DNA of 63,756 nucleotides, counting the filler, from an uncultured Methanospirillum sp. (GTDB lineage: Archaea > Halobacteriota > Methanomicrobia > Methanomicrobiales > Methanospirillaceae): the NCBI GenBank assembly GCA_964637135.1. It is 4 parts of 4 records of this genome, joined end to end, with 100 filler letters (N's around TTAATTAATTAA, not from the genome) between each part and the next. Parts side by side here need not be neighbours in the genome. Positions count along the whole stretch, not along the records: positions 17,286 to 34,029 come from CAZWTX010000041.1; 3 more parts are not named here. One strand, given 5' to 3'. The notes beneath the pieces are model-generated. The model was not told the origin of the DNA and did not search any database. It was given only the letters and a program-made list of their open reading frames with translations. Made by a program: the position numbers and the translations under genes. The first letter of the stretch is position 1. The number at the start of each line of letters is the position of its first letter. Of this stretch, positions 17,286 to 34,029 are shown piece by piece.

Positions 17286-17852
17286 TTTTTAGGGACCGAA
17301 TCCCCGATGAAAATATCCACTCCAGCCAATATCACATATGAATTTGATAAATCTGTATTCACTCCTGAAGAGGCAAAACTTACAACAGATCTGCAAATTC
17401 TTCTATTTCCTGAAAAAGATCCGACAGTAACTCCAACGAGGATTAATAGCACGCTGCGATCATTACGGACATCTAATCTATATAAATTACCCGGCGAACT
17501 CTTGTATGAGGATAAAAAAAATGGAACGGCTGTAATAGCCAAAACTGATATGATCTTTGCAAATATTGTGGTTACTTCCGGAAACTCTACTCATATTCTT
17601 GATTCGTATCTGTATCCGCCTATATATAGACCGGAAGACATCATCGGTTTGAATAGTAAATGGGATAACAGTGTTAGTGCCTGGGTAGAATTATCTCAGG
17701 TAATGAATATTGCCAATATTTCGACAGTAAAACGAATCTCCCCGGTTATTTTTGGTACGTTTAATAAAGGTTCAATAACAACAGAGGGGGATGGTATCCA
17801 TCATTCAGATTTTGTCCGATATGGAGTAAACGATACCCGTTTCACCCGCTGA
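17286..17852 (+). pseudogene. Truncated paralog of the pro-region of the protease at 21853
   Basis: Strong DNA/protein similarity to ~21957-22498 (PGELLYEDKKNGT, GSITTEGDGIHHSD); similarity stops before the catalytic domain. Confidence 0.85.
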
Positions 17853-18051
17853 AATCATGCGGTGGAGAGAGGAATATCCTGTCACTCCCAAAGCATTAGA
17901 CACTACCTGATGCGAATTTTCAATAGAATGCATAGACGAAGATCACCTCAGGTAGCAGTATGTTAATCAGGAAAACCTGACACATACTACTATAGTCGTC
18001 TCTATGTAAGGAATCACTGACGTAAACGGCCGATAATGATGGAGAGTATGA

Positions 18052-18315
18052 ATGGTTGAAAGCAGAGCCGGAGTAACAATCCGCCAAAGGGAAGGATATC
18101 CTGCTTTTATTCCAAAGCCGCTCCCTCCCCATCTTCCTTTAGATCTTCATGATTCCTTGCTCTCTCTTCTCTCGCATCAAGGCAGGATAATCCTGAATGA
18201 TATCAATAAAGAAAATAGACGCCTTATTGAGCCTTTCATCCCAAAAAATCATCCTCGTTGGTATACGCCTGTAGAGAAGAGACCCCTGATTCAGACGTGG
18301 ATATCATGGGAATAG
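18052..18315 (+). pseudogene. Fic-family N-terminal remnant fused to unrelated sequence
   Basis: RAG..RQ.EGY.AFIPKPLPP resembles the Fic N-terminus; no HPFxDGNGR core. Confidence 0.6.
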
Positions 18316-18561
18316 AGGATGCCGTGGATCATCAGAGGATGGAAATGATCAGGCAAAAAAGCAGTGGGAAGAATAACGCCGGGTGTTGGAATGAATATTA
18401 TGGTATCCTATAGAAAAAAATCCAGAATCCGGTACCGGGAACGGTGTTGTACCAGCCCCATTCTGAAGGGAAGGGGGTTTGAAAACAGATAAATGACGAT
18501 AGGTCATTTCAAAGATTTGATACCCTGTATTCCGGAAAGATAAAAAAAAGGGATTTAACAC

Positions 18562-18876
18562 ATGAATGAGAATACCGGAACGCCTGGACAGATTATCGAG
18601 ATCCTGACTTCAAAGAGAGATGAACTCATTGCACTCTCCCGGAAACACGGTGCATCAAATATCAGGGTTTTCGGCTCTGTCGCCAGACGGGAAGAGAGGC
18701 CAGGATCTGATATTGATCTTCTGGTAGATATGGATGAAGAAGCAAGTCTTCTTGATCTTGCCCGCCTGAAAAACGATCTTGAGGATCTGCTTGGAAAATC
18801 AATTGATATCACGACAAAATCTGCTCTTCATCCCATGCTTGCTGATGCAATCCTGAAGGAGGCAATTGCACTGTGA
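18562..18876 (+). CDS. Minimal nucleotidyltransferase (MNT) antitoxin
   Basis: FGSVARREERPGSDIDLLV (GSx10DxD). Confidence 0.92.
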   Translation: MNENTGTPGQIIEILTSKRDELIALSRKHGASNIRVFGSVARREERPGSDIDLLVDMDEEASLLDLARLKNDLEDLLGKSIDITTKSALHPMLADAILKEAIAL

Positions 18877-19226
18877 GAACCCGGGACATTTACCTTGCTG
18901 ATATGATGGAATCGATCAACAAAATCGAATCCTATGCTGAATCAGGAAGAGAAACGTTCCTTGAAACACCTTTAATCCAGGATGGCATTATCAGAAACCT
19001 GGAAATTATTGGAGAAGCAGCACATCACCTGGATGAATCATTTCAGAGATCAAATCCTGATATTGACTGGAGAGGAATAATCTCGCTTCGAAATCTCCTG
19101 ATTCATCAGTATCACCGGGTTGATCTTAACCTGATCTGGCGTGTTATTGAACGGGATATCCCGCAATTAAAAGTCAAAATTCAGAATTTAATCAGCGAAT
19201 CTGAACACGATGGAAAGGGGAAGTAG
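18873..19226 (+). CDS. HEPN (DUF86/HepT-like) RNase toxin, intact
   Basis: RNLEIIGEA and RNLLIHQY (Rx4HxY); GTGA overlap with MNT. Confidence 0.92.
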   Translation: MRTRDIYLADMMESINKIESYAESGRETFLETPLIQDGIIRNLEIIGEAAHHLDESFQRSNPDIDWRGIISLRNLLIHQYHRVDLNLIWRVIERDIPQLKVKIQNLISESEHDGKGK

Positions 19227-19434
19227 GGTCGTATCAGAATATTGCTGCAAAAAAAGATTGATCCCATAATCGATACAATCAGATTCACCTGTTTAGATCC
19301 TGTACCCTTTTATCAGCACACATTCAACGGTACGACGATAGGCTTTGCCATACAATCTTATAGATCGCTCGAATCCGGTCCCTGAATGACAATACATAAT
19401 ATAGCCCCGTCTGATAATCAGATTATACCTCATT

Positions 19435-19752
19435 ATGCAGGGACTCATTGAGCAAAACCGGCATCCAGTTATCAGGCACCTGAACGATGTAGTCCCGACG
19501 ATAAAAAACACATTCGGGGTTACCCGCATCGGGATCTTTGGTTCGGTAGTTAGGGGTGATGAGACCGGCAAAAGCGATGTTGATATCCTCGTTGAACTGA
19601 CAGAAGGATATAAGACCCTTAAAAATTTTGTTGCCCTGGCTGATTATCTCGAAGCCCTCCTGAGTCGGAAGGTAGACCTTGTCACCGTCGATGGACTGGA
19701 TCCGTATGTCAGGCCATATGTAGAGAACGAGGTGGTCTGGGCTCAGGGATGA
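19435..19752 (+). CDS. Second MNT antitoxin
   Basis: IGIFGSVVRGDETGKSDVDILV, RKVDLVT. Confidence 0.9.
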   Translation: MQGLIEQNRHPVIRHLNDVVPTIKNTFGVTRIGIFGSVVRGDETGKSDVDILVELTEGYKTLKNFVALADYLEALLSRKVDLVTVDGLDPYVRPYVENEVVWAQG

Positions 19753-19810
19753 CTGGATCTCCCTGAAACATATACTTTATGAAATTTTAGTTCTGTTGAG
19801 ATCTTCTTTT
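19740..19810 (+). pseudogene. Remnant of a DUF86/HEPN toxin N-terminus
   Basis: Overlapping frame reads LRDDWISLKHILYEI, like DUF86 N-termini, then diverges; no Rx4H. Confidence 0.45.
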
Positions 19811-19979
19811 AATAGCAGCTCGAGAGAATCTCCCCCTGAATTCAGGATTTGTTCATCTTTAGGGCTAAATCTGATGTAATTTATGGGGTTCTATTTTCGT
19901 CCCAAAATATGGTAATTCACATTAAAGACTCTGTTAGCCACTATTTTGATTATCGACGAAACCCATAGATCACATACGC

Positions 19980-20213
19980 ATGACCTCCTCAACCATCCAG
20001 ATACCTGAGTCCACCATCCATGCTCTCGATCACCTGAAAATCCATCCCGGTGAAACCTACGCCGAGGTTATCGAGCGACTTATCGGCCTCTGTAACGAGG
20101 AAGAAGATCTCACTCCGGAAGAATGGTCACGAATAGAGCAGGCCGAAGCAGAATACAAAACCGGAAAAACATACAATTTCGACGAAATAAAACGAAGACT
20201 GGGAGACGAATAA
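19980..20213 (+). CDS. Putative antitoxin (RHH-like, archaeal RelE-associated type)
   Basis: TIQI..LDHLKIHPGETYAEVIERL; paralog of 30129-30365; directly upstream of a RelE frame. Confidence 0.8.
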   Translation: MTSSTIQIPESTIHALDHLKIHPGETYAEVIERLIGLCNEEEDLTPEEWSRIEQAEAEYKTGKTYNFDEIKRRLGDE

Positions 20214-20484
20214 TATTTTTACCCTCTCTTTCTCCCATTCTGCCGAGCAGGGACTCCGGCAGATTCCCAAAGAATACCGGATAGCAATATACCAGAAACT
20301 GGAAGAACTCTGCCATCTTGAAAACCCCGTTCTTCTCCTGAAAAAACTGAAAAGTCCGGATGGAGTCAGCCGGTACTCTCTTCGGGTTGGGATATACCGG
20401 GTCATCCTGAGAATAGAACAAGATAAACTGGTCATCATCGTCCTTGATGCAGGACATCGAAAACACGTATATCGCAAATACTGA
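20206..20484 (+). pseudogene. RelE/ParE-family toxin frame starting at ACG (not in the ORF track)
   Basis: Open 92-codon frame ..KKLKSPDGVSRYSLRVGIYRVIL..AGHRKHVY; no ATG/GTG/TTG at the 5' end after the in-frame TAA at 20188-20190. Confidence 0.8.
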
Positions 20485-20679
20485 TTCCCTTTTTCAATAC
20501 ATATGGTGAGCAGGCTGTTGCATGCCGGAAACGACATTCAGAGATGATTTGTTCGATACCGGTTTCCGGAATCCTCCAAATCCATATAAAATGAACTTAC
20601 CCTTTCTCACATCCAAAATTGAGAGAACTTATTCAGGGGAGAAGAGTATAAAAGGGTATATCGAAAGGAGATCTGCCTG

Positions 20680-20919
20680 ATGACGAAATATCAATTTACA
20701 ACCCTGATATGGGAAGAAAACGGGGTGTATGTTTCGAAATGTGTAGAGATTGAACTCTCATCCTGTGGGGATACCCCAAAAGAGGCACTTGAAAACCTGC
20801 GAGAAGCGATCGATCTCTGGTTGAAAAATGCCGAATATCTCGGATTATTATCCGATGCTCTTCCCTCAATAACCGCGTCAGAAAAATTTACTTCTACCAT
20901 CGAGGTTGAGGCTGCGTGA
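20680..20919 (+). CDS. HicB-family antitoxin
   Basis: YVSKCVEIELSSCGDTPKEALENLREAI. Confidence 0.88.
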   Translation: MTKYQFTTLIWEENGVYVSKCVEIELSSCGDTPKEALENLREAIDLWLKNAEYLGLLSDALPSITASEKFTSTIEVEAA

Positions 20920-21151
20920 AATTACCGCAGATCTCCTCACAAACTCTTATTAAAAGTTCAAACGTATCGGATATCGGGATGCTCCTTTCCAGGGAAAGGG
21001 GAGTCACGCCGCTCTCTATAAGGACACTGACGGTACGAAATTACTGGTCATAATACCAAAACGGGATCCAATTCCCATTGGAACCCTTTTGTCTATTATG
21101 AAACAAGCTCGGATGGAACGAGATAAATTTTATTTATTCCTCACCAGCTAA
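20916..21151 (+). pseudogene. HicA-family toxin, frameshifted (not in the ORF track)
   Basis: GTG MKLPQISSQTLIK, then shifted frame KFKRIGY..GKGSH..IPIGTLLSIMKQA; 236 bp, one base short near the A-run 20952-20955. Confidence 0.85.
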
Positions 21152-21239
21152 ATGAATACCTTCTAGCCGGGATTTCACATATTAGAAGACATATCAAATT
21201 TCTTTCCGGTCAATTACCATCAGGTTGGGTTCTATCAAA

Positions 21240-21555
21240 AAAAGAGGTAAGATCCTCTCCCTCCTTACCCCCGCATCCACCGGACCAGCCCTCCGAGCTG
21301 GCCGAGGTGATCCCTCGCCTGGCCGGCAACGGCAAGGGCATCGACGCTAACACTACCATCCTCTTCTTCCCGGACCGCTTCCACGATCCCGACGGCGAAC
21401 TCAACTGATACCTCTGCCAGAGCCAGGTACTGGCGGAGAACAAGGAAGAGGGCTCCCCCGTTCACCACCGCAATCCCGGCTGACACCCCGGCGATCACCT
21501 CGGCAATCATCGCTTCCCTCCGATCCTCACTGCATCGCTCACCGTGAAATTCCCG
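21240..21555. repeat. Direct repeat copy 1 (~315 bp)
   Basis: Aligns by eye with 28286-28601 (offset 7046 bp); contains the 81-aa gene and the last ~15 codons of its upstream gene. Confidence 0.9.
21265..21510 (-). CDS. 81-aa predicted membrane protein, copy 1
   Basis: MIAEVIAGVSAGIAVVNGGALFLVLRQY; near-identical to 28311-28556, frame conserved. Confidence 0.8.
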   Translation of the reverse strand: MIAEVIAGVSAGIAVVNGGALFLVLRQYLALAEVSVEFAVGIVEAVREEEDGSVSVDALAVAGQARDHLGQLGGLVRWMRG

Positions 21556-21852
21556 TATGCTCACAGCAAGACAAAGAAGAAAGATTGTAGAGTTGAATTT
21601 CAATAGTAGTGAAGTACAAAAATGAAGATGTAATTGAATTAATCGGGTACATTTATATCTTTAGTAAGATTAGTTAGGTTAAATAAAAAAATCAGATCAA
21701 TTATAATAGACGAGATCTAATTAACATACTATATGATATTTAAATGTGTTACGTTAGTAAAATACACCCATACATTCTTTTCCCTTTTTTCCCAGGAGGA
21801 AATAAAAAAAAGGATTATTGTGGAAAAAAAGGAGAAACCCGTTTTCCATGCA

Positions 21853-24800
21853 ATGCCGTTTTCGATAGAAACGAGTTTAATATTACTCCTCATTTTATCA
21901 GGAATTCTCTTCAACCCGGTTTCTGCAAAGGTCTATGCAAATTATACCCCTCAATTCTTTGTAGGGAACGAATCCCCGATGAAAGAATCCACTCCTGTCA
22001 ATATCACATATGGAGTATACGATATATCGACATATACTCCTGAAGAACGCAAACTTGCAACAAGATTACGTACTCTTCTTTTTCCGGAAAAAGATCCAAT
22101 CGTAACTCCGGCAATGATTAATAGCACCTTATTGACATTGATTGGTTCAAATTTATACAAATTTCCCGGCGAACTCTTGTATGAGGATAAAAAAAATGGA
22201 ACGACTGTAATTGCAAAAACCGACATGATCTATGTAAATATTGCAGTTACTTCCGGAATCTCCACTCATATACTTGATTCGTATCTGTATCCACCAATAG
22301 GAAGAAATGAAGATATTTTTGGTTTATATAGTAATTGGAATGGTAATAATGTCGATGCCTGGGTAGAATTATCTCAGGTAATGAATATTGCCAATATTTC
22401 ATCAGTAAGACGAATCTCTCCGGTCATTTTGGGTACTTTTACTAAAGGTTCAATAACAACAGAGGGGGATGGTATCCATCATTCAGATCTTGCCCGAAAT
22501 TTAGTAAACAATACAAACCTCTCTGAAATAAAAATTGGAGTGATTTCAGACGGGGTAACAAATAAACAACAAGCAATCTCTTCAGGAGATCTTCCGGCAT
22601 CATTGAAAGTAATCGGAACCGGGGAAGGTGATGAAGGAACAGCAATGCTGGAAATTATTCATGATATTGTTCCAAATGCTTCTCTATATTTTCACCCAAC
22701 CCTGACTACCCAGTATAGTTTTTCAATAGCCCTTTCTGACCTGATAAATGAAGGATGCACCATAATTTGTGATGATGCTTGCATATTATTTGAACCTGCG
22801 TTCTATGATGGGAATGTTACAACTTTGATGAATAATTATGCTCAAAATCAGAATGTTCTCTTCATTTCATCAGCAGCAAATTATGCAAAAAGTCATTACC
22901 AAGGTTTTTTCTTTCCACAAAATTCGGATCCGCTATTAAATGATTTTAGTAAAGGTGGGTTGTCTCCAGAACCTGTTCCCGATAAACCGAATTTATATGC
23001 CCGTTTAAATCCTGGTGATATCATCAATGTTGCACTTCATTGGGATGACGGGGGCCAGTCAGGGAACGACTATGATTTATATTTACTGAATTTTGATACA
23101 GATGAGATATTGGCATCTAGCATAGATTATCAAACGGGTAGTGAAATCCCTTTTGAATTTATTAGTTATAACTCATCGGATTACCTAACAGCCATGATTC
23201 AGGTGAAAAAAAAATTCCCTACTGTTCAAAATAAAACATTAGAATTATTTATCGATGTAGATGATGCGCAAAAAATATACACCAATAATATCGTAGAAAT
23301 TGATTCAATATTTGAACATGCAGCTGCGAGTGGAGTGGTAACGGTTGGTGCAGCACCATATGACAACACCCATAATATTGAACCAACCTCTTCACAGGGA
23401 TGCGTGACTATCCAATATCCAGTCCCTGAAATCAGAAATAAACCTGATATTACTGGTGTTGATAAAGTTAGTGTTACAGGTGCAGGGGGGTTTAATTCTC
23501 CATTTTACGGAACAAGTGCTTCAGCTCCCCATATTGCCGGTATCGCCGGTTTATTATGGAGTAAAAACACCTCGAAAACCGCATCAGAGATAAAAAATGC
23601 TATCCTTACTACCGCTGATGCAAGAGGTGATCATTATTTATTTGGTTCCGGTTTAGCGAATGCGTCACGAGCGTATTATTATTTATATCCCGGTCCAACG
23701 GTCACAAGTATCACCCCGAATATCGGTGTGAACGATGAATTGGTTCTATCTACCAATCTTACCGGAACAAATTTTGAATCAGATGCCAGCGTTTATCTCT
23801 CGAAGACAGGACAATCACAGATAAACGCAATAAATATCTCGGTAATTTCTTCCGCTCTTCTCACCTGAACTTTCAATATTTCGAATGCGGAAACAGGGCC
23901 ATGGAATGTCACGGTTCAAAATCCGGATAGACAATCCGGGACATTGTATGAAGGATTCCTCATTAACACGACAAATTCCCTGACGGTAACAAATATCACT
24001 CCGAACATTGGTATGAACGATGGATTGGTTTCAATAACTAATCTTTCCGGAACGAGCTTTAAACAAAATGCCAATGTGTATCTCTCAAAAACAGGAGAAT
24101 CACAGATAAACGCAACAAATATCTCGGTAATTTCTTCCTCTCTTATCACTTGCACATTTAATTTAACGGATGTTGCAACAGGTCCATGGAATGTCACGGT
24201 TCAAAACCCTGATGGTGAAACCGGGACATTATATAATGGATTTGCAATTAATTCTATCAGTTATCTCTCTGTTACAAGTATCACTCCGAACACTGGTCTC
24301 AATACGGGTTCTGTTACGATTACCAGTATTTCTGGCGATTCTTTTGAAATCGGGGCAACTGTAAACTTAACCCGAACTGGACAACAGAATATTACTGCTG
24401 GATCAGTTCAGGTAGTTTCACCAACCCAGATTACCTGTGTTATTCCCCTAGCTGGAAAATCCGCTGGCCAGTGGAATGTTGTTGTAACCAATCCCGGTGG
24501 ACAAACAGGATCGCTTTTAAATGGGTTTACCATTACCGCTCCAAGTCCGGGAAATACTCCCTACAAAATCGATCCTTCAAAGATGAATACCTTTGATGGA
24601 CAATATCTCTCTTCTCGGGGATATGGCTGGTGTGACTTTGGTGGTAAAAATAACTCTTACTATAAGATCACGCTCAGTGGTTCCCAACAATATCCTACTG
24701 AATTCCACCTGGTTAATAGTTTTACAACAAAAGCTCAATTTGGCATCCTTCTCCAGGCCTCAAATGTCAGGATCAGTGGAATAGATCTTTCAACAGCCCT

Positions 24801-27800
24801 AAATGCAGATCAAAGACCGGTGAATTCAATAACAAATATTTATGCTCCTTTACTTCTGGCAGAAACGGGGGCAGCAGGAATAAAGATTCCCTCGGGGTAT
24901 AACAACATTAAATTGGTAAATGTGAACGTTGATGCCTTGAATGTACCGGCAATCCATGTAGATGGTTCGAATGTAGATCTCATTGGAACCAATAATCCTG
25001 ATCCATATCTTACAACCTACACCGGTTGCGGAATAAATGAGAACTGGGGTACAACGCTCATTGGAAGACAAAATTCAGGATATGGACTTGGTCTCCTTCA
25101 ACAGACACAATCACGCAGTTCTGCCATTACCATTACCGGATCAGGAGGGAACGGGGTAAATATAATGGGTCCGTTTAGTGGTATTGAATTGAATGGAAAG
25201 ACTGCTTCTCTGGCAATTAATGGCGAAAAAATTCACATTACCGGTACAGGGACAGAGAGTGGAACTGGATATGACCGTAATAGTGGGATTAGTGCATGGG
25301 GTGGTAGTTCAGTGTTGGTATCCGCAACTGATTCTTCAATAATTGGTCAGGAGTACGGAATCTATGGTCAGGGAGGAGCAATTATCAATATAAACTGTCC
25401 AAATTGTACAATCGGCCCAATTGGTAGCAGTTCGGTCTTATCATCATCTGAAGTAAAATCTCAAGCAATAGGATCTCTTATCCAGGGTGGAAAGGATGGT
25501 TTATTCCTTACTGGAACTAGTACACCCGGATTTGGGAAAGTAACGATAGAAAATACAACCGTACTGGGACAGACAGGATATGGAATAAACTTCAGTCAAG
25601 CTGGCGGATATGCGATAACTATCACCAACCCTACTGAGATCCAGGGAGGTCAGGGAAAACTTGGAGCCTCAGAGAGTGAATCCAACCAGATTACCATAGG
25701 AAGTGTAAATGTCACCACCGGAGCTACCGGACCGTATCTTGTCAACATTTCCTTAGATGCCATTTCCGGACCCGATCCATATAATCTGTTAATTTTTAAT
25801 GAGTCAGGGGGTGTCGTGTATGATATTACCAACTGGTCTTCTCTTCCAGAAGGGATCACATACACCTCTTCCCCAGCAATAGTATCATTCGCATCTGAAA
25901 CCCTGGAGATCTATTCTGCAAAAAAATATCCTTCGTCTGGTCCGGATCTCTCTCTTACCTCCATTGAACCGACACAGGCGCAACAAGGATGTATTACTCA
26001 AGTAAATATCTCCGGTATTTTTAATCCCGTTGCAAACGCAACTACAATCAGCCTTACTCGTTTTGATTCCTGTGTTAATGGGACTGATGTAACGGTTGAA
26101 TCTTCAACATTGATTCGTGGAATTTTTTCACTCCCTCCAGAGATAGAAACAGGTTCCTGGCAGGTGAATGTAATTCAGGATGAGACCCCATGTGCTGGAA
26201 ATGTAACCTTTAACGTAACAAGTAAACCCCTTCTCCCCTCAATAACCACTCTTCCAGCCAATAATGTCAGTTCATACTCAGCTCAGATCTCTGGAAATTT
26301 AACTTCTACCGGTGGAACATCATGTAATGTTTATTTTGGTTATGGAACGAATGAATCAATGTTCTCAACATTCACTACGCCTATCCTATTAACAGGACCG
26401 GGAATTGTTACTGCCAACATCAGTAATCTCATCCCTGAAACTCCATGGTTTTATGCGGCATTTGCCAACAATACCATGACTGAAATCAGAGGGGATATCA
26501 TGAGTTTTACCACCAATGCGGTAAATAATCCTCCGATTATCAAAAGTGTTCTACCGTCTTCCGGAATTCAGGGCAATCGTATAACGATAACGAATCTTTC
26601 CGGATTTTTCAATACGAGTGCCTATCAAACCAATGTTATTCTTACTGGTTTAGGAGTGAATATCAGTGCAGAAAACGTTTCAGTTGTCTCTTCTGAGCAG
26701 ATAACCTGTACCTTATCCCTTCCTGTATCAGCAACCCCAGGTCAATGGAGGATAATGGTTGAACAGAATGGACAATGGAGCAATGGTGATATTCTGTTTG
26801 AAATCGGACAGACGAGTTATATCATACATGCTTCTGCATCACCTGGTGGAAATATCACTCCTTCAGGGGAAATATCTGTGTTATCTGGTTCAAACCAGAC
26901 GTTTTTAATTACAGCAGATCCCGGATATCATTTAGGAAATCTGATAATTGACAACATGAGCACTGGAGCAGCAGAAACCTACCTATTCCATGATATCTAT
27001 GAGAACCATACAATATCAGCGGAATTTATCCCAAATAGTATCCCCTCTTATATCATTACAGCGATTGCATCGCCAGGCGGGAATATCACTCCTTCAGGGG
27101 AAATATCTGTTTTATCAGGTTTAAATCAGACCTTTTTCATCGCAGCAGACTCTGGATATCGTATTGTAGATGTTATGATTGACAATATGAGCATCGGATC
27201 TTTGGATAGATATACATTTGAAAATGTTACTTCGCCTCACAGAATTGAGGGGATATTTGAAAAAATGGGCATAGCTCCGATAATTACCCACGTACATCCG
27301 ACATCAGTCCGCCAGAATAGTGTTGTGACTCTTTATTTGTCAGGTCAGAATTTCTTCGGTAATGAGCGAGTTGATCTCACGAGAAATGGGTCTGATAACC
27401 GGACTGGAAGAGGTATTCTATTTCAGGATCGATTAATCGTTCGAGGAATGAATCTAGTCGGAGCACCCGTGGGGTTATGGAATATCCAGGTAACTAACCT
27501 TACAACCGGTCTTTTCGGAATAAAAAGGGACGCTTTTACTATCGATCCAGCACCCCAGCCGTATTATACCATCTATACTGTTGATGATGAATACGGTGAT
27601 TTATATCCATCAGGTCCTGTTCGTGTACGGACCGGATCACATAAAACATTTAGAATAAGAGTTACTCGTGGTGCTGAAATCGTAAATGTCACTGTAGATG
27701 GTACTCCAATAATCCTTGATCACAACAATGGGTATACTTTTTTCAATGTAAGAAGTGACCATACTATTACGCTTAACACCGGCCTAATTCCCGGTATTAT

Positions 27801-28197
27801 TCATGCGAACTTCACCGTGAATCAGACCTCTGGTAAAGTCCCCCTCACGGTTCAATTTATTGATACCTCATCAGGTAATCCTGACAGGTGGTTATGGAAT
27901 TTTGGTGATAGAACCACTTCTACGTTACAAAATCCTGTTCATACCTATACCAAACCAGGTAAATATTCTATCCAACTGGGTGTTAAAAAGGGAAATCGGA
28001 GTGATATGATTATCCTTCGGGAGCATATTTGGTCAATATCAAATAGAAATCTCTTAATTGAACCAAAAAGCGATGATTCTGTCACCTCTCCATATACCTT
28101 GACATCTGTAAAAATACCAATTGTTTCGATGAAGAGTCATGAAGATAATAATATGTCGGATGAACTGTTGCCCCTGAAACTGCCTGAAATTACATAA
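21853..28197 (+). pseudogene. Giant secreted S8/S53-like serine protease with IPT/TIG, beta-helix-like, InlB-B-like and PKD domains; one in-frame TGA at 23866-23868
   Basis: Signal peptide; IGVISDG, DEGTAMLEIIHD, GTSASAPH; track ORFs 21733-23868 and 23944-28197 share a frame and repeat homology runs through the stop. Confidence 0.85.
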
Positions 28198-28285
28198 AAT
28201 TTATCCAGTTATCAGTTTAGGTGAAGCCTTCCTGAATCCCGATCCGTTTTTTCTGAACAAAACCGGTAAATGGTGGGATCTCCTA

Positions 28286-28601
28286 AAAAGGAATAAGGTC
28301 TCCCCTCCCCTTACCCCCGCATCCACCTCACCAGCCCCCCGAGCTGGCCAAGGTGATCCATCGCCTGGCCGGCAACGGCAAGAGCATCGACACTGACAGC
28401 CCCATCCTCTTCTTCCCGGACTGACTCCACGATCCCGGCAGCAAACTCATGCGAAATCTCTGCCAGGGTGAGATACTGCCGGAGAACGAGGAAGAGGGCT
28501 CCCCCGTTCACCACCGCAATCCCGGCTGACACCCCGGCGATCACCTCGGCAATCATCGCTTCCCTCCGATCCTCGTCGTATCGCTCACCGTGAAATTCCC
28601 G
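28286..28601. repeat. Direct repeat copy 2 (~315 bp)
   Basis: Matches 21240-21555. Confidence 0.9.
28311..28556 (-). CDS. 81-aa predicted membrane protein, copy 2
   Basis: Hydrophobic N-terminal helix; ATGA overlap with the upstream gene. Confidence 0.82.
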   Translation of the reverse strand: MIAEVIAGVSAGIAVVNGGALFLVLRQYLTLAEISHEFAAGIVESVREEEDGAVSVDALAVAGQAMDHLGQLGGLVRWMRG

Positions 28602-29128
28602 GAGACGAATCCGTCGGAGTCGACACTCCGGTTATCCCGGCGGGATGCCCCGAATGTTATCATCCCTGACCCGTTCGCGAAGATAGCTCCCGACAGGTCA
28701 GGACCGATCTTCCGGGACGAATCATACTCCCCGTGTCCGAGGATCCCGGATGCATAGGCCGATACCGGTTCCTCGAATTCCCCCGGACGGGTGAAGAATG
28801 AACAGAGATCGGCGATTCCAGACTCCTTCAGGAACCCGTCGGCATACTCGGTGAAAAGCACCTGTCCGGACGAAGCAACCGAGAGATCGGCCGCAATATC
28901 CCGATCCCCGGCAAGCGTCCGGGAGAGCCGGGCTGCATCGGTCGCCATCACCCCGGACGAATACGACCCGTTCTCATCGCTCCCTTCCGTATGGAGCACC
29001 ATCATCCCGTCGGTCGCAATCGTCGTCGCCAGGTAATCGGCTCCGGCAAGCCCGGCAAGGACCAGCAGGGCGATACCCGCGATACCCATGCCGCTCATCC
29101 TAATCCCGGTTATTCTGGCCGGCATCAT
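28553..29128 (-). CDS. Secreted Gly/Ser-rich hypothetical protein
   Basis: Signal-peptide-like IAGIALLVLAGLAGA; ATGA overlaps at both ends. Confidence 0.8.
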   Translation of the reverse strand: MMPARITGIRMSGMGIAGIALLVLAGLAGADYLATTIATDGMMVLHTEGSDENGSYSSGVMATDAARLSRTLAGDRDIAADLSVASSGQVLFTEYADGFLKESGIADLCSFFTRPGEFEEPVSAYASGILGHGEYDSSRKIGPDLSGAIFANGSGMITFGASRRDNRSVDSDGFVSGNFTVSDTTRIGGKR

Positions 29129-29634
29129 GCCAGGGCAGCCACCGAATCAGCCCAGGTCTCAAGGCCGGTCCGGATGGCATCATCCTCGTAACTCGAGAGG
29201 CTGATGCTGTCCCGTTTGAAGGTTACCGTGTAGAGTTCGCCGTTGCTGTGATGAGCCTTGATGGTACAGCTGAACGAATCACCGGACGAATCACGGGACG
29301 CAAACACCCCGGTCCCGTACGCTGACGTGATCGCCTCATTCGCGGTGATCTGGGTCACCGCCGTATTCACGGCAGCCATCGACGGCCCCCTCACCGTGAT
29401 CGTCCCGACCGTCTTCGCCTCCTCGTTCTGGTAGACAATCGAAGCCGTGTATGACTCCTTGGTCTTCTCAACTGCCGGCTTTGCAGCCCCGGCGGATTCA
29501 TACGCCGTACATCCCCAGGGGTTGTTTGTCAGAACACCCTGGATAACCGTAGAGAAGGACGCGTAATCAGCAAACGGAGCGGCAAGAGCCCGTACCGCTG
29601 ACTTGATCACGCTCTTCTCGGTAAAATCTCCCAT
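29125..29634 (-). CDS. 169-aa Ala/Ser/Thr-rich hypothetical protein (MGDFTEKSVIKSAVR...)
   Basis: ATG 29634 with a GGGGAG RBS; first gene of a coupled three-gene operon. Confidence 0.8.
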   Translation of the reverse strand: MGDFTEKSVIKSAVRALAAPFADYASFSTVIQGVLTNNPWGCTAYESAGAAKPAVEKTKESYTASIVYQNEEAKTVGTITVRGPSMAAVNTAVTQITANEAITSAYGTGVFASRDSSGDSFSCTIKAHHSNGELYTVTFKRDSISLSSYEDDAIRTGLETWADSVAALA

Positions 29635-30128
29635 TTCTCTCCCCCATGTCGCATTCCTGCGACGTACCCTCATATGCCCGTCGCAGATATCTCCTTCCCG
29701 GGGGACACCCGATCTGCTTGTCCGGCGGCCATGAATCATGAAACCCGGGGAATATTCGAGCATTACCCGGTACCCGGAGAACCCGGATGAAAGAGTGTCA
29801 CCGATTGCCCGGTGGGTCATACGTCGTCACGAAATCTTCGAGGCGGGTACATGACTTCTCACGGGTTGTGATAACCGAATCCTGAATTCATGTGTTCGTT
29901 CCACCTGGCAGGAGTTTTGGTATTCCCTCGAACCGGATAGAGAAAAAACCGGTTATCTAGTGGAGGCAACAGGTTTTGTGATTTGATATGGATTTCCCAC
30001 CGCTACACTATCTGCCGAAATGGTTCTTCTAACCCCCCCATCCTCCTGAGTTTTTCGGCACTATACCGGTCATGGATCATACCGTTCCGTGTTTACTATC
30101 AATACCGGTAAACACCTAGAGGTATATC

Positions 30129-30365
30129 ATGCAAGAGGCTTCCACGATATACATTCGATCTGATTTGAAGGAGCAGTTAACTCACCTGAAGACACACCCC
30201 CGGGAATCATATAGTCCAGTGATCGAGCGCCTTCTCTCATGTGCCATTGATCCCAATCCTCTTACATCAGAAGAGATAGCAGGAATTGAAGAAGCACTGG
30301 AAGATATCAAAGCAGGAAGGGTCCATACTGAAGAAGAGATCGTGAAAGAATTCGGGGTTGAATGA
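30129..30365 (+). CDS. Putative antitoxin, paralog of 19980-20213
   Basis: TIYI..LTHLKTHPRESYSPVIERL..EALEDIKAGR. Confidence 0.82.
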   Translation: MQEASTIYIRSDLKEQLTHLKTHPRESYSPVIERLLSCAIDPNPLTSEEIAGIEEALEDIKAGRVHTEEEIVKEFGVE

Positions 30366-30627
30366 CTGAGTTTCAGATCATCTACCCAAACAAAGCAAAA
30401 AGAAACCTCAAAAAATACTCTTGCCCATTGCCCAGGAGATAATCAGAGCCATCCATGAACTGAAGAATAATCCCTGGTCACGGGTACAGAAACAGGAAGG
30501 ATCTGAGAAGTCTCCCTTTTATTCTTTTCATGTCGGTGGGTACCGGGCTATTCTCTCTATTCAAAACAATACACTCATCGTGTATGTGGTGGAAGTCGGT
30601 CCCCGGAAAACCATTTCCCGGAAATAG
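30362..30627 (+). pseudogene. RelE-family toxin, frameshifted
   Basis: ATG overlapping the antitoxin stop (MTEFQIIYPNKAKRNLKK), then shifted frame ..YSFHVGGYRAIL..VGPRK; 266 bp, one base short at the A6 run 30410-30415. Confidence 0.85.
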
Positions 30628-31200
30628 TGACCTTTTTTTTGAAAATTGAATTATTCTCGGCTCTGTTGAGTTCCCCAACGTATGGTGAAACCTCTTTGAA
30701 ATCGTGATAATCGGTGAATGAGGAAACAGATACCCGTCCGTGTACCGCCTCATCTGTATTTGAGTAAATACGTACTTCGTGTTTCGTTTAGCCATATTCT
30801 CAGCAGGGAGCGCTCCGTTCTGAGATCTTTTTTTCTTTCCGGAGGTTCTCAAAGAACCCCGATTTCGTACTAAAAAGGGAACTCTCGGGCAGAGAACCTG
30901 AATAGATTCTCTTACCGGACGATACAAATCAATAGCTTTAGAAAGATCACGGGAATACGGTGCATTGCCCGGGTCTGCGACAACCATGAGCATATCACCG
31001 GGCGTGGGTGTCCGGAATGATACCAGGAGAGAGAGAAACAACAAAAGGCTCCCCGACCGTTACAATCGCTTGGAGGCTGATTACAGTGGGGAGTATACTC
31101 ATTACGCCTGTCGGATTTTTAATCGTATCTTCGGTTCTGATGAATCCCGGGATAGCGGATCATCATTCTGCCAGGAGATCCGGTTTCCGCGGGTTATGAG

Positions 31201-31548
31201 ATGGCTTCCTGGAGTGGCCATTTCACCCGTCGTACTGCCGAGTATGCCGCCCGGGACCTGCTCATGGAGCAGGGATACGAGGTTGTCCGGGTTACCGAAC
31301 GGTCAGGGGCCGTTCCGTCCCGGTTTCACCTGATCGCCTGGAAGAAGAGACGGGTCATCTTCATCCGGATCGGATCGCACCGGATGCCGAAAACGTCCGT
31401 TCATGCCGAGATCGTCAGGCTCTCCGGGCTGGTCAGGACCGGGACGTACCCCGGCGACGTGCAGTACTGGATCGGGTCCGGCTCCGGCTGGATACGGCAC
31501 CTGATCCTCCCGGGCGGCAGCATCCGGCTCTTCGGTGGATTTACATGA
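31201..31548 (+). CDS. Hjc-like PD-(D/E)xK-fold protein with degenerate active site
   Basis: AEYAARDLLMEQGYEVVRV..FHLIAWK..VIFIRI matches the Hjc pattern; overlaps the primase gene. Confidence 0.55.
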   Translation: MASWSGHFTRRTAEYAARDLLMEQGYEVVRVTERSGAVPSRFHLIAWKKRRVIFIRIGSHRMPKTSVHAEIVRLSGLVRTGTYPGDVQYWIGSGSGWIRHLILPGGSIRLFGGFT

Positions 31549-34029
31549 TCCCCTCCAGGCCGGCCGGAACGGGGATTCACCGGTTCCCGGGTTATCGGAA
31601 GATCGGCCAGGCAGGGGGGGAATGACTCCCGAAGAGGTCAGGGCAGCAATCGAACAGGCCCTCTCCTGCCTGGTCGCCAAAGAATCGGTCTGTGAGATCC
31701 GGATCCTTGCTGAAGAGAGCGTATCCTCTGGGTATTATACCGATCTTCAGAAGGCTGCGGCTGATATCGCTATCCGGGATACCGACCCTGAGGTGCACGG
31801 GATCTATGTCACCCTCAACCCGGTCAATCCGGCTCTCCTTGCGAGGAGAGCGAACCGGTTGAAATTCAGGCTCGGGAAGAAGGATGCGACCACCGCTGAC
31901 GGGGATATTCTCAGGCGGCGGTGGCTCCCGGTAGACATCGACCCGGTCAGGCCGTCGGGAGTCTCATCATCGGAGAACGAGCATGCAGCAGCCTTTGACT
32001 GTGCCCGTTCCGTCCGGAAATTTCTGGAATCGGCCGGATGGCCGACACCCATCCTCGGTGACTCAGGGAACGGGGCTCACCTCCTCTACCCGGTCGATCT
32101 CCTCGAGGGTGAAGCACAGAAAACCCTGATCCGGCAGATCCTCGATCTCCTCCATCGCCGGTTTTCAACCCCGGTCTGCCGGATTGACACGGCGAATTTC
32201 AACGCTGCCAGGATCTGGAAGGTCTACGGGACGATAGCGAGGAAAGGGGATCATCTCCCCGAACGGCCGCACCGGCGATCCCGGCTGCTCGAGTGTCCTG
32301 ACCGGACGGTCTCCCTCACCGAATCTGATCTCACTGCACTCCTGGACCGGGAAGGAACCCGACACCCGCCGCCCGGTCAGGATGACTCCCCGTCCCCGGC
32401 TCCTCCGGCAGTATCAGACGGGATCGTCGAGAACCGGTCGATTCACCTGGGCTCCTGGCTCTCCGGTCACGGGCTTTCGTATACCGAAAAGCCGTACCAG
32501 GGAGGAGTCTTATACGTCCTTGACCGGTGTCCCTTCTCAGACGACCACACCGACGGGGCATTTGCCATCCAGTTCCCGAACGGGGCGATCTTCGCCGGAT
32601 GCCACCACACCTCCTGCGGGGGAGGCCGGCAGCGGTGGCAGGAACTCAAAAGCCGGTATGACCGGCGAAATCCGGGTATCGCCGACCGGATGAAGGCGAT
32701 CAGATCAGACCGGATCCGGTCACGGTTCGCTCATGAGAGCGGAGAATCCGGATTGCTTCTGCCTGACCGATCAGCCGATCCACGACCCCGTCTCCCGGAT
32801 GAGACGATCCCGTTTCAGGCACGGGAGATCCTCGCTTCCGGCGATCCGTTCTCGTTCTTCCTTGAAACCTTCGGAAAGAACCATGAAGGGGATCTCCGGG
32901 TGGCCGAATGCCTGCTCCATTCGCTCATCTCCCGGACGGTCAGAAACAGCAAAGGCCTGCATGTCTCCATCTCCGGGGAGTCAGGGAAGGGAAAATCGCA
33001 TGCCATGGAGACGATGCGGTCCCTGGTTTCGCCGGATCTTCGGATCGAGGGACGGGTAAGCGACAAGGCCCTCTTTTACATGGACGATCTCCGTCCGGGA
33101 ACGGTCATAGCCCTGGATGATGCCGTCCTCTCAGACCAGATGCAGGAGATCCTCAAAGGCGTGACCACCTCGTTTCAGAAGCCCTTTCCGTACCGGACGG
33201 TGAACAAGGAGAGAAAGGCCCTGACCTGCCTGATCCCGGAGCGGTGTGTCTGGTGGATCTCCCGGGTCGAAGGGGCCGGAGACGACCAGGTCTTCAACCG
33301 GATGCTCACCTGCTGGATAGACGATTCCGAGAGCCAGGATCTGAAGGTGCTCTCCCGGTCGCTGGAGAAGGCTACGCAGTTTCCCTCCGAAAGGCTGGAG
33401 GAGAGCGAGGAGATCCTGATCTGCCGGCAGATCTGGGAGGAGATTGATCCGGTCTGGGTGGTGATCCCGTTTGCCGGCCGGATCCGGTTCCAGTCGGCAG
33501 CGAACCGGCGGAACCCGGATATGCTCCTCGATCTCATCCGGACCCATGCAGCCCTGAACCAGTACCAACGGGAGAGCCGGATGGTGGAAGGGGTCCGGTG
33601 CATCATCGCAACCGAAGCGGATTTTGAGAATGCTGCCCGGCTGTATGTCGCACTGAACGGAGAGAGCGGTGCCCAGACCCACAAACTGACGAAACGTGAG
33701 TCTGTTCTGCTCGATGCCCTCTCGTCGGCCGGAATCGGCGAGGTCCCGGTTGCTTCCCTCCAGCGGATGACCGGGTGGTCGAGCAGCTCCATCCACAAGC
33801 TCCTCCACGGGTACCTGAGTTATGGGAAGACCTACTCTGGCTTGCTCGAGAAATGCCCGGCGGTCTCGTTCCTTGACCGGACGGTCTCCCGGGGCGATGA
33901 CGGGTGCACGACGCTCCGGCGGGTGAGGGTCTACTCCTGGGATGCTGCCCTCTACGAGGGATGGATGAAAGGCGGGTCGGTCTGGCTCGAAGATGAACGG
34001 TCCGAGCCCCCGGACGATCCGCCGTCCCC
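31535..34029 (+). CDS. AEP primase / Zn-finger / MCM-like AAA+ helicase fusion (3'-partial; alternative start 31622)
   Basis: VDIDP, DSGNGAH, DTANFNAARIWKVYGT; CPF..H..CHHTSC; Walker A GESGKGKS, Walker B IALDD. Confidence 0.8.

Follow-up and report, generated by a model that had tools for sequence, protein, structure and literature searches.

What kind of genetic element occupies an archaeal contig with a primase-helicase gene at one end, toxin-antitoxin (TA) genes and a giant protease at the other, and no housekeeping gene in between? The window analyzed here is a stretch of 63,756 nucleotides (filler included) from an uncultured Methanospirillum sp. (GCA_964637135.1); positions 17286-34029, between assembly linkers, are one entire contig of 16,744 bp (CAZWTX010000041.1, or G000:C41), with one copy of the element and its cargo, cut at both ends. 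An earlier note had taken this contig for a candidate undescribed self-replicating plasmid- or virus-like element with a GC-rich core and AT-rich cargo. The layout is as described there: the GC content is 0.60-0.62 in the core (a three-gene cassette and the Hjc-like and primase genes) vs. 0.40-0.45 in the cargo, and the 17 open reading frames scanned in the contig gave no match to housekeeping families. The word "undescribed" has to be dropped. In the available part of Makarova et al. (2014; PMC4158269), the primase/Hjc pair arCOG07809/arCOG09441 is presented as belonging to putative integrated satellite viruses or elements (example Mpal_2033). Our reading, to which we give about an even chance, is that a family of satellite-like integrative elements of the Methanomicrobiales has left this copy stranded in the chromosome, without an integrase.

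The replication gene (31613-34029, plus strand) encodes an arCOG07809-type protein with an AEP primase, a zinc cluster, an AAA+ helicase and a winged helix-turn-helix (HTH). The fusion proposed in the earlier note is borne out by the AEP motifs DIDP and DSGNGAH, a Cys/His zinc cluster, Walker A and B motifs and an arginine finger. Complete homologs have ~960-1120 amino acids and a C-terminal zinc finger; the last ~200 residues are missing here because the contig ends. Among 47 homologs, the motifs DxD, SGNGxH, zinc cluster, Walker A and arginine finger are each retained in 43-47 (DxD in 46, Walker A and arginine finger in all 47), and the pN/pS ratio is 0.36. The helicase part aligns weakly with the MCM-type AAA+ domain of the host MCM (P 16%, E 0.0016), and not with superfamily I. 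Directly 5′ of the primase gene in most loci, and at 31201-31548 (plus strand) here, lies the gene called Hjc-like in the earlier note. The fold is matched (PF01870, E 0.08; E 2.3e-4 for one homolog), but the catalytic D and ExK are absent: ExK is retained in none of the homologs, and the contig copy additionally lacks the Asp. The protein looks inactive in these elements, as far as its residues tell.

The core genes form a multicopy family with conserved synteny. The primase-helicase was matched in 35 of 41 genomes, and each of five complete Methanospirillum genomes has 6-11 primase loci among the matches listed; these are lower bounds, since 83 further primase matches lie outside that set. 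Twenty loci of two genomes share a set of ~6 kb, made of the Hjc-like gene, the primase-helicase, a terminal small gene T (of two homologous types, P 74%) and the cassette C-B(-A). Conservation stops at gene ends, with no terminal repeats or conserved termini among the family loci compared. The pair C-B follows the primase in some loci and precedes it in others, and in still others, the copy in the window among them, it is inverted; this order, circularly permuted or inverted, fits a circular form opened at different points. In a sample of 151 Methanomicrobiales genomes (related genomes that are not independent, only two of them Methanospirillum), 136 genomes match C, 98 the helicase, 24 the sheath family and 4 B. 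Outside Methanospirillum, the neighbor of C is often another small gene, for a membrane or coiled-coil protein, and a Cdc6 gene is found in some elements. Genes for Cdc6/Orc1 were seen in or beside elements of several genera (L058, L060, L107, L110-L114). At L095-L106 (genera g12 and g13), C often occurs without primase and is followed by three conserved genes without a Pfam family, for a 54-aa membrane protein, a 177-aa soluble protein and a multi-pass membrane protein.

Databases of free elements returned little of this family. No full-length primase match occurs among 72,556 PLSDB plasmids; PLSDB and GenBank phages gave primase-domain matches and one weak helicase-region match, and IMG/VR gave three matches to the primase domain only, in other elements. 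The 127 spacers from the fetched loci have no convincing match to the elements, and no CRISPR array was found in the source genome. A 55-spacer array begins close behind one element copy (L028, 889-6142).

The complete form is best seen in the genome G001, where an element of 14,956 bp stands in tandem (L041/L042) at tRNA-Gly(gcc) with an 18-bp attachment (att) repeat. Each unit runs integrase, Hjc, primase, T, C, B, an A-like gene and further small genes, with an excisionase-like gene among them (integrase phrog_1, E 3.5e-32; excisionase phrog_66, E 5.7e-9). A tRNA-Ser/integrase/primase arrangement is present at L076. Judged by gene content, the complete form thus has genes for a tyrosine integrase and an excisionase-like protein, the Hjc-like gene, the primase-helicase gene with an iteron-like array at its end, the small T gene and C-B-A, and it sits at tRNA 3′ ends. 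The integrase that the earlier note placed tentatively beyond the contig ends is a property of some family members, although in the window copy the contig stops before an integrase or att site would be reached: integrase sequence lies within 20 kb in 3 of 40 listed primase loci (two tandem units and one fragment). All 40 are chromosomal, in five closed genomes, and no depth excess is seen over the core of the contig; for the copy in the window, the idea of a free plasmid or virus finds no support.

Most copies appear, from their sequences, to be without integrase, dispersed in the chromosome, recombining and decaying. An inserted copy with cargo takes up 11.2 kb at L021, against 362 bp between the corresponding flanks in G020; one copy is orthologous and decayed in a sister genome. 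For L029, L030, L050, L039 and L062, empty sites were sought and the flanks were found rearranged. Recent tracts are shared between dispersed copies (93% over 2.5 kb for L021/L031; 91% over 4 kb for L038/L039), and of 67 C matches, 36 are full-length and stop-free and 31 broken or partial. The copies thus seem often old, yet under purifying selection and recombining. Integrases of the same family without a primase nearby occur at L045, L046, L047 and L049, two of them close to tRNAs; they are possibly remnants or helpers in trans.

Recombination has probably left its mark at the element ends. Of 66 loci, 14 have direct repeats that reach into core genes, 21 repeats in total, and all involve the outermost genes. 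Duplicates of T2 and A mostly keep the 3′ end and are cut at varying points on the 5′ side; TA pairs are among the cargo that they enclose. The contig holds one such end duplication, an outer copy around the protease (21239-21555, minus strand) with the complete gene A and the final 48 bp of B, 87% identical over 317 bp to 28285-28601, 7 kb apart. The cargo site that had been placed just past the cassette is found again, bounded by duplicated gene ends. That the ends recombine at a fixed site was rejected as a general rule (two A-side joints within 2 nt, T2-side joints ranging over 42-726 bp). An orphan fragment of gene A lies amid TA genes on the contig C33 of the same genome.

Gene C (29125-29634, minus strand, start at 29634) encodes a soluble protein of 169 amino acids and is the most conserved gene of the family (603 representatives). 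It is under the strongest purifying selection (pN/pS 0.16) and usually adjoins a gene for a small membrane protein (A, k13 or k20). The protein is acidic overall (net charge -5) and its model is confident (pLDDT 94). Foldseek found no match at E <= 0.001 in PDB or BFVD, and the top score of the VIA fold search was Z 7.8 (96 aligned, rmsd 3.4). We did not accept a CYTH-like similarity (Z 7.5 with 126 aligned, rmsd 10.0). No relatives of C were found in IMG/VR or GenBank phages.

Gene B (28553-29098, minus strand, start at 29098) encodes 181 amino acids, with a signal-like N-terminus, four sequons and an invariant Cys. The model is all-beta with 10 strands (pLDDT 88), and a signal peptide is predicted from the N-terminal hydrophobic helix. 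Against the profile of the host sheath (SH) family, B scores 21.5, a weak match (shuffles 12.6 +/- 2.0, maximum 18.7). Motifs are shared, in a comparison by eye only, with vir387_00095, listed in the available part of Medvedeva et al. (2024; PMC11576556) as a viral SH-like protein with a proposed role in exit. Six short motifs sought in the supplements of the sheath paper were not found there. Fold searches with B returned generic beta-sheet matches (best Z 7.1, rmsd 4.9, 75 aligned), and sequence searches against PDB and the ESM Atlas gave nothing usable; these blank fold searches do not show that either fold is new. The four B-positive genomes among the 151 all carry sheath genes, and the source genome holds 13 SH-family matches. 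As to the structural module suggested in the earlier note, C may have such a role, and B, from its sequence and model, looks like a secreted sheath-related protein rather than a capsid. At L025, L038, L039, L072 and G000:C30, SH genes of the host type stand a few kb or less from an element copy or from C-B and are possibly cargo. Gene A (28311-28556, minus strand) encodes 81 amino acids with one N-terminal hydrophobic helix and had no family match in the scans run on it; the product may be a holin-like membrane protein.

Satellites such as P4 and SaPI have their own primase-helicase and an origin array. In the present family, 46 loci could be scored for inverted 7-mers, and in 19 of them (18 of 45 if the tandem pair enters as one) the best window of the whole locus falls at most 1.5 kb from the end of the helicase; this zone makes up ~8% of the windows, and in the printed examples the repeats flank an AT-rich core. 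We read this iteron-like array behind the helicase gene as a putative origin, a function suggested by the repeat layout; the contig copy stops short of its position. By analogy with P4 and SaPI, the complete form would excise, replicate with its own primase-helicase from the array and leave the cell with the aid of a co-resident virus. The cassette C-B-A would be the exit or packaging module, with A acting as a holin-like membrane protein, B as a sheath-like protein disturbing the amyloid sheath, and C either binding DNA or forming part of a particle. Dependence on a helper, the formation of particles and the function of C are what we infer. Stranded copies would stay under selection by being mobilized or converted through homologous recombination with incoming relatives, and a crossover in the core, combined with a second joint made imprecisely, would account for the duplicated gene ends, cut to different lengths, between which the cargo lies.

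The genome G001 also holds a head-tail provirus of ~35 kb (L048/L122, G001:2815100-2850000). It has no primase, C, B or A and is thus a possible helper, not a parent; an origin of the module as a remnant of this type of provirus was rejected on the same ground. One of its open reading frames, SH-like, begins by eye like vir207_00027 in the available part of PMC11576556, and one spacer of the L028 array matches the provirus at 22 of 23 nt. A separate element of ~13 kb ends near tRNA-Phe in G024 (L043/L119, G024:2615150-2627700), with an integrase, a different primase, a 745-aa open reading frame and terminase-like genes. No capsid gene was seen in it, which makes it a PICI-like candidate, and a solo C-B-A cassette adjoins it.

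How firmly can the satellite-like reading be held? Several observations weigh against it. Integrases are scarce (37 of the 40 listed primase loci of the five closed genomes have none within 20 kb), many sites are old, solo C genes occur, and neither an excised circle nor a particle was observed. At the single old empty site (L021/G020), an att site or target duplication is absent, and about half of the compared G020/G024 sites share a flank, with flanks swapped, so that many copies are old and sedentary. No terminase, capsid-size or known interference gene was found among 23 proteins scanned in PHROGs, C, A and T being without a known family; terminase (PF03237) is absent in G000, G013 and G020, and two matches lie in other elements. 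C is spread more widely than the helicase (136 vs. 98 of the 151 genomes), with primase present in only 9 of 32 long metagenome C loci. For B, the similarity to the sheath profile is weak (21.5 vs. a shuffled maximum of 18.7), and it occurs in only two genera of the sample, 20 sheath-positive genomes being without it. The missing packaging genes among those 23 proteins favor instead a helper-free, integrative plasmid-like element, spread by vesicles, by uptake of free DNA or by cell passage within one sheath, in which C-B-A would remodel the envelope. The cargo-rich ends, the Cdc6 initiator of some relatives and the filing of arCOG07809 under "plasmid" in the available supplement of PMC4158269 point the same way. 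Against it, no relaxase or conjugation ATPase occurs among the conserved genes, no plasmid record carries the full primase protein, and B resembles proteins described from viruses (PMC11576556, available part); we regard this account as rather unlikely.

A self-sufficient non-tailed virus or capsid-forming satellite, with C as a capsid or nucleocapsid of new fold, A as its membrane protein and B as its exit factor, is favored by C being the most conserved gene, near-universal in the order, often beside a small membrane gene and without a fold match. We nevertheless hold it to be quite improbable: IMG/VR and GenBank phages yielded no C, a packaging ATPase was not found, a terminal repeat is missing from all 80 metagenome loci (many of them contig parts only), and the net charge of C is negative. 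A bolder version is unlikely too. In it, an unrecognized archaeal virus group is represented in ~90% of the genomes of the order by these elements, as proviruses or capsid-forming satellites; C, a particle protein of new fold, is paired with means of exit that differ between lineages (in Methanospirillum, a mimic of the amyloid sheath), and integrase-less copies, replicated and exchanged by their own primase-helicase, are what chiefly drives island growth in these methanogens. Orthologous sites that are old and carry intact genes, the frequent solitary C, and flanks in which TA, restriction, PAS and PKD genes abound can also be taken as signs of domestication, the host keeping integrase-less copies as inducible local origins or as recombination platforms that amplify and shuffle the defence, sensor and surface genes nearby. 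That 31 of 67 C matches are broken or partial, that the copy number is patchy, that an autonomous tRNA-integrated form exists and that the core shows no excess depth leave this account, like that of the virus, quite improbable. A chimeric or mis-binned contig, a concern of the earlier note suggested by the sharp GC steps and the draft state of the assembly (116 contigs), is very improbable. Paralogs lie on five further contigs of the same genome, and closed genomes have the same layout. In run X1 (possibly the source sample), for which, as for X2, the evidence is that of assembled contigs, depth is 5.6-10.3 on the long pieces listed, alike over cargo and core, and one record of 4,325 bp spans the cargo/core junction. 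In run X2, of a separate study, the core is present at ~99% identity and the sequence extends 1,029 nt beyond the right end of the contig. To the extent that assembled contigs can show it, this one is no chimera. The joints 17620-28231 (35-nt side) and 28317-21293, and the protease left uncovered in X2, are ambiguous and were not used.

The cargo of the contig copy begins with the 5′ region of a subtilase, a truncated second copy (17286-17852, plus strand; 81% to 21958-22514), followed by an 87-aa open reading frame without family match, probably a gene fragment (18052-18315). An array of TA genes comes next, all on the plus strand: an MNT-HEPN (HepT) pair (18562-19226; PF01909, E 1.7e-14; PF01934, E 4.5e-26), a second MNT with a short HEPN-like stub (19435-19880; PF01909, E 2.3e-13), a DUF7557 antitoxin with a RelE-like frame that has no usual start codon (19980-20483; a relative on C33 at 91% identity), and a HicB-like gene with a frameshifted gene that we take from its motifs to be HicA-like (20680-21155). 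Beyond the outer end duplicate lies the giant protease, a subtilase (S8) with repeats and a PKD domain (21733-28197, plus strand; GC 0.40). It is a single frame of ~2,150 codons, broken by one in-frame TGA (23866-23868), most likely a nonsense change; a neighboring repeat has a Cys at this place. Between cassette and Hjc gene, a TA pair of DUF7557/RelE(ParE) type is inserted (30129-30630, plus strand). It had been counted as part of the core; the pair is present, but it has no DNA-level match in any other fetched locus and its toxin is frameshifted, as are several toxin genes of the contig. The A-run at 30403-30409 of this toxin varies in length in contigs of X1 and X2, variants that may come from other copies or strains. 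Elsewhere in the genome, C-B without primase heads an array of large subtilase/PKD genes related to the protease (G000:C13, 2461-12000), and an R-like gene of type I restriction stands behind a third copy of the primase (G000:C18, 1-8000).

In digesters and sediments, the Methanomicrobiales rank among the major producers of methane; knowledge of their mobile elements is poor. A family with a marker in 136 of 151 genomes, lying at rearrangement breakpoints and carrying defence and surface cargo, would explain much of the accessory genome. The satellite hypothesis of 2014 becomes testable with an intact tRNA-integrated element and a head-tail provirus in one closed genome, and the proposed exit by sheath mimicry would extend from viruses to a capsid-less element. 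Primase and iteron array together may serve as a replicon for genetic tools.

Among known systems, the tycheposons of Prochlorococcus are tRNA-targeted and cargo-carrying, and their remnants build genomic islands; hosts and hallmark genes are different here, and the repeats are coding gene ends, not att remnants. The element has no terminase large subunit of a head-tailed provirus, PF03237 being without a match in G000, G013 and G020. It is not a transposon of the insertion sequence or casposon kind, since no transposase or terminus is conserved across the loci compared and no duplication occurs at the one old empty site. Nor is it a free plasmid, the 40 listed loci being chromosomal and without a full-length PLSDB match. 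The viral SH-like proteins reported from head-tailed and icosahedral (pro)viruses (PMC11576556, available part) have a signal peptide and 150-350 amino acids; B, at 181, is likewise of secreted type, with its predicted N-terminal helix, all-beta, resembles the vir387_00095 family by eye and occurs only in genomes with sheath genes. Unlike them, it belongs to a small capsid-less element. The viral proteins have an amyloid-like core of two six-stranded sheets; the model of B shows 10 strands.

With phage satellites (P4-like, PICI/SaPI, PLE, VEIMEs; PMC9618062, available part), the full form alone shares the integrase at a tRNA, the excisionase and the att sites. Also common to both are the primase-helicase followed by an origin-like array (an origin by its repeat layout), the accessory genes, and an element of 15 kb beside a head-tail provirus of ~35 kb. 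The differences are the archaeal host, the lack of a recognized terminase small subunit, AlpA or capsid-size gene, the fact that most copies are without integrase, and a helper that is only a candidate. The closest relatives are the arCOG07809 elements. As in these, primase, helicase, HTH and zinc finger are joined in one protein, an arCOG09441 gene of the HJR (Hjc) family lies in front, some members have integrase and att (L041/L042 at tRNA-Gly), and no capsid is recognizable. In Methanosphaerula palustris, ACL17332.1 (44% over 794 aa to the primase) has the Hjc gene upstream and C nearby, the same neighbors as in the window; it may be Mpal_2033 itself. Different here are the inactive-looking Hjc and a helicase that aligns, weakly, with MCM-type AAA+ and not with superfamily I. 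The available text of PMC4158269 has no C, B, A, iteron arrays, 6-11 mostly integrase-less copies or end duplications; the literature searched gave no later paper on these elements and no account of such features, though surveys of AEP or of methanogen viruses may cover them. By its genes, the element is a member of the arCOG07809 elements, and what is new relative to the known pair is the copy number, the origin arrays, the conserved C protein, the sheath-like B and the end-bounded cargo.

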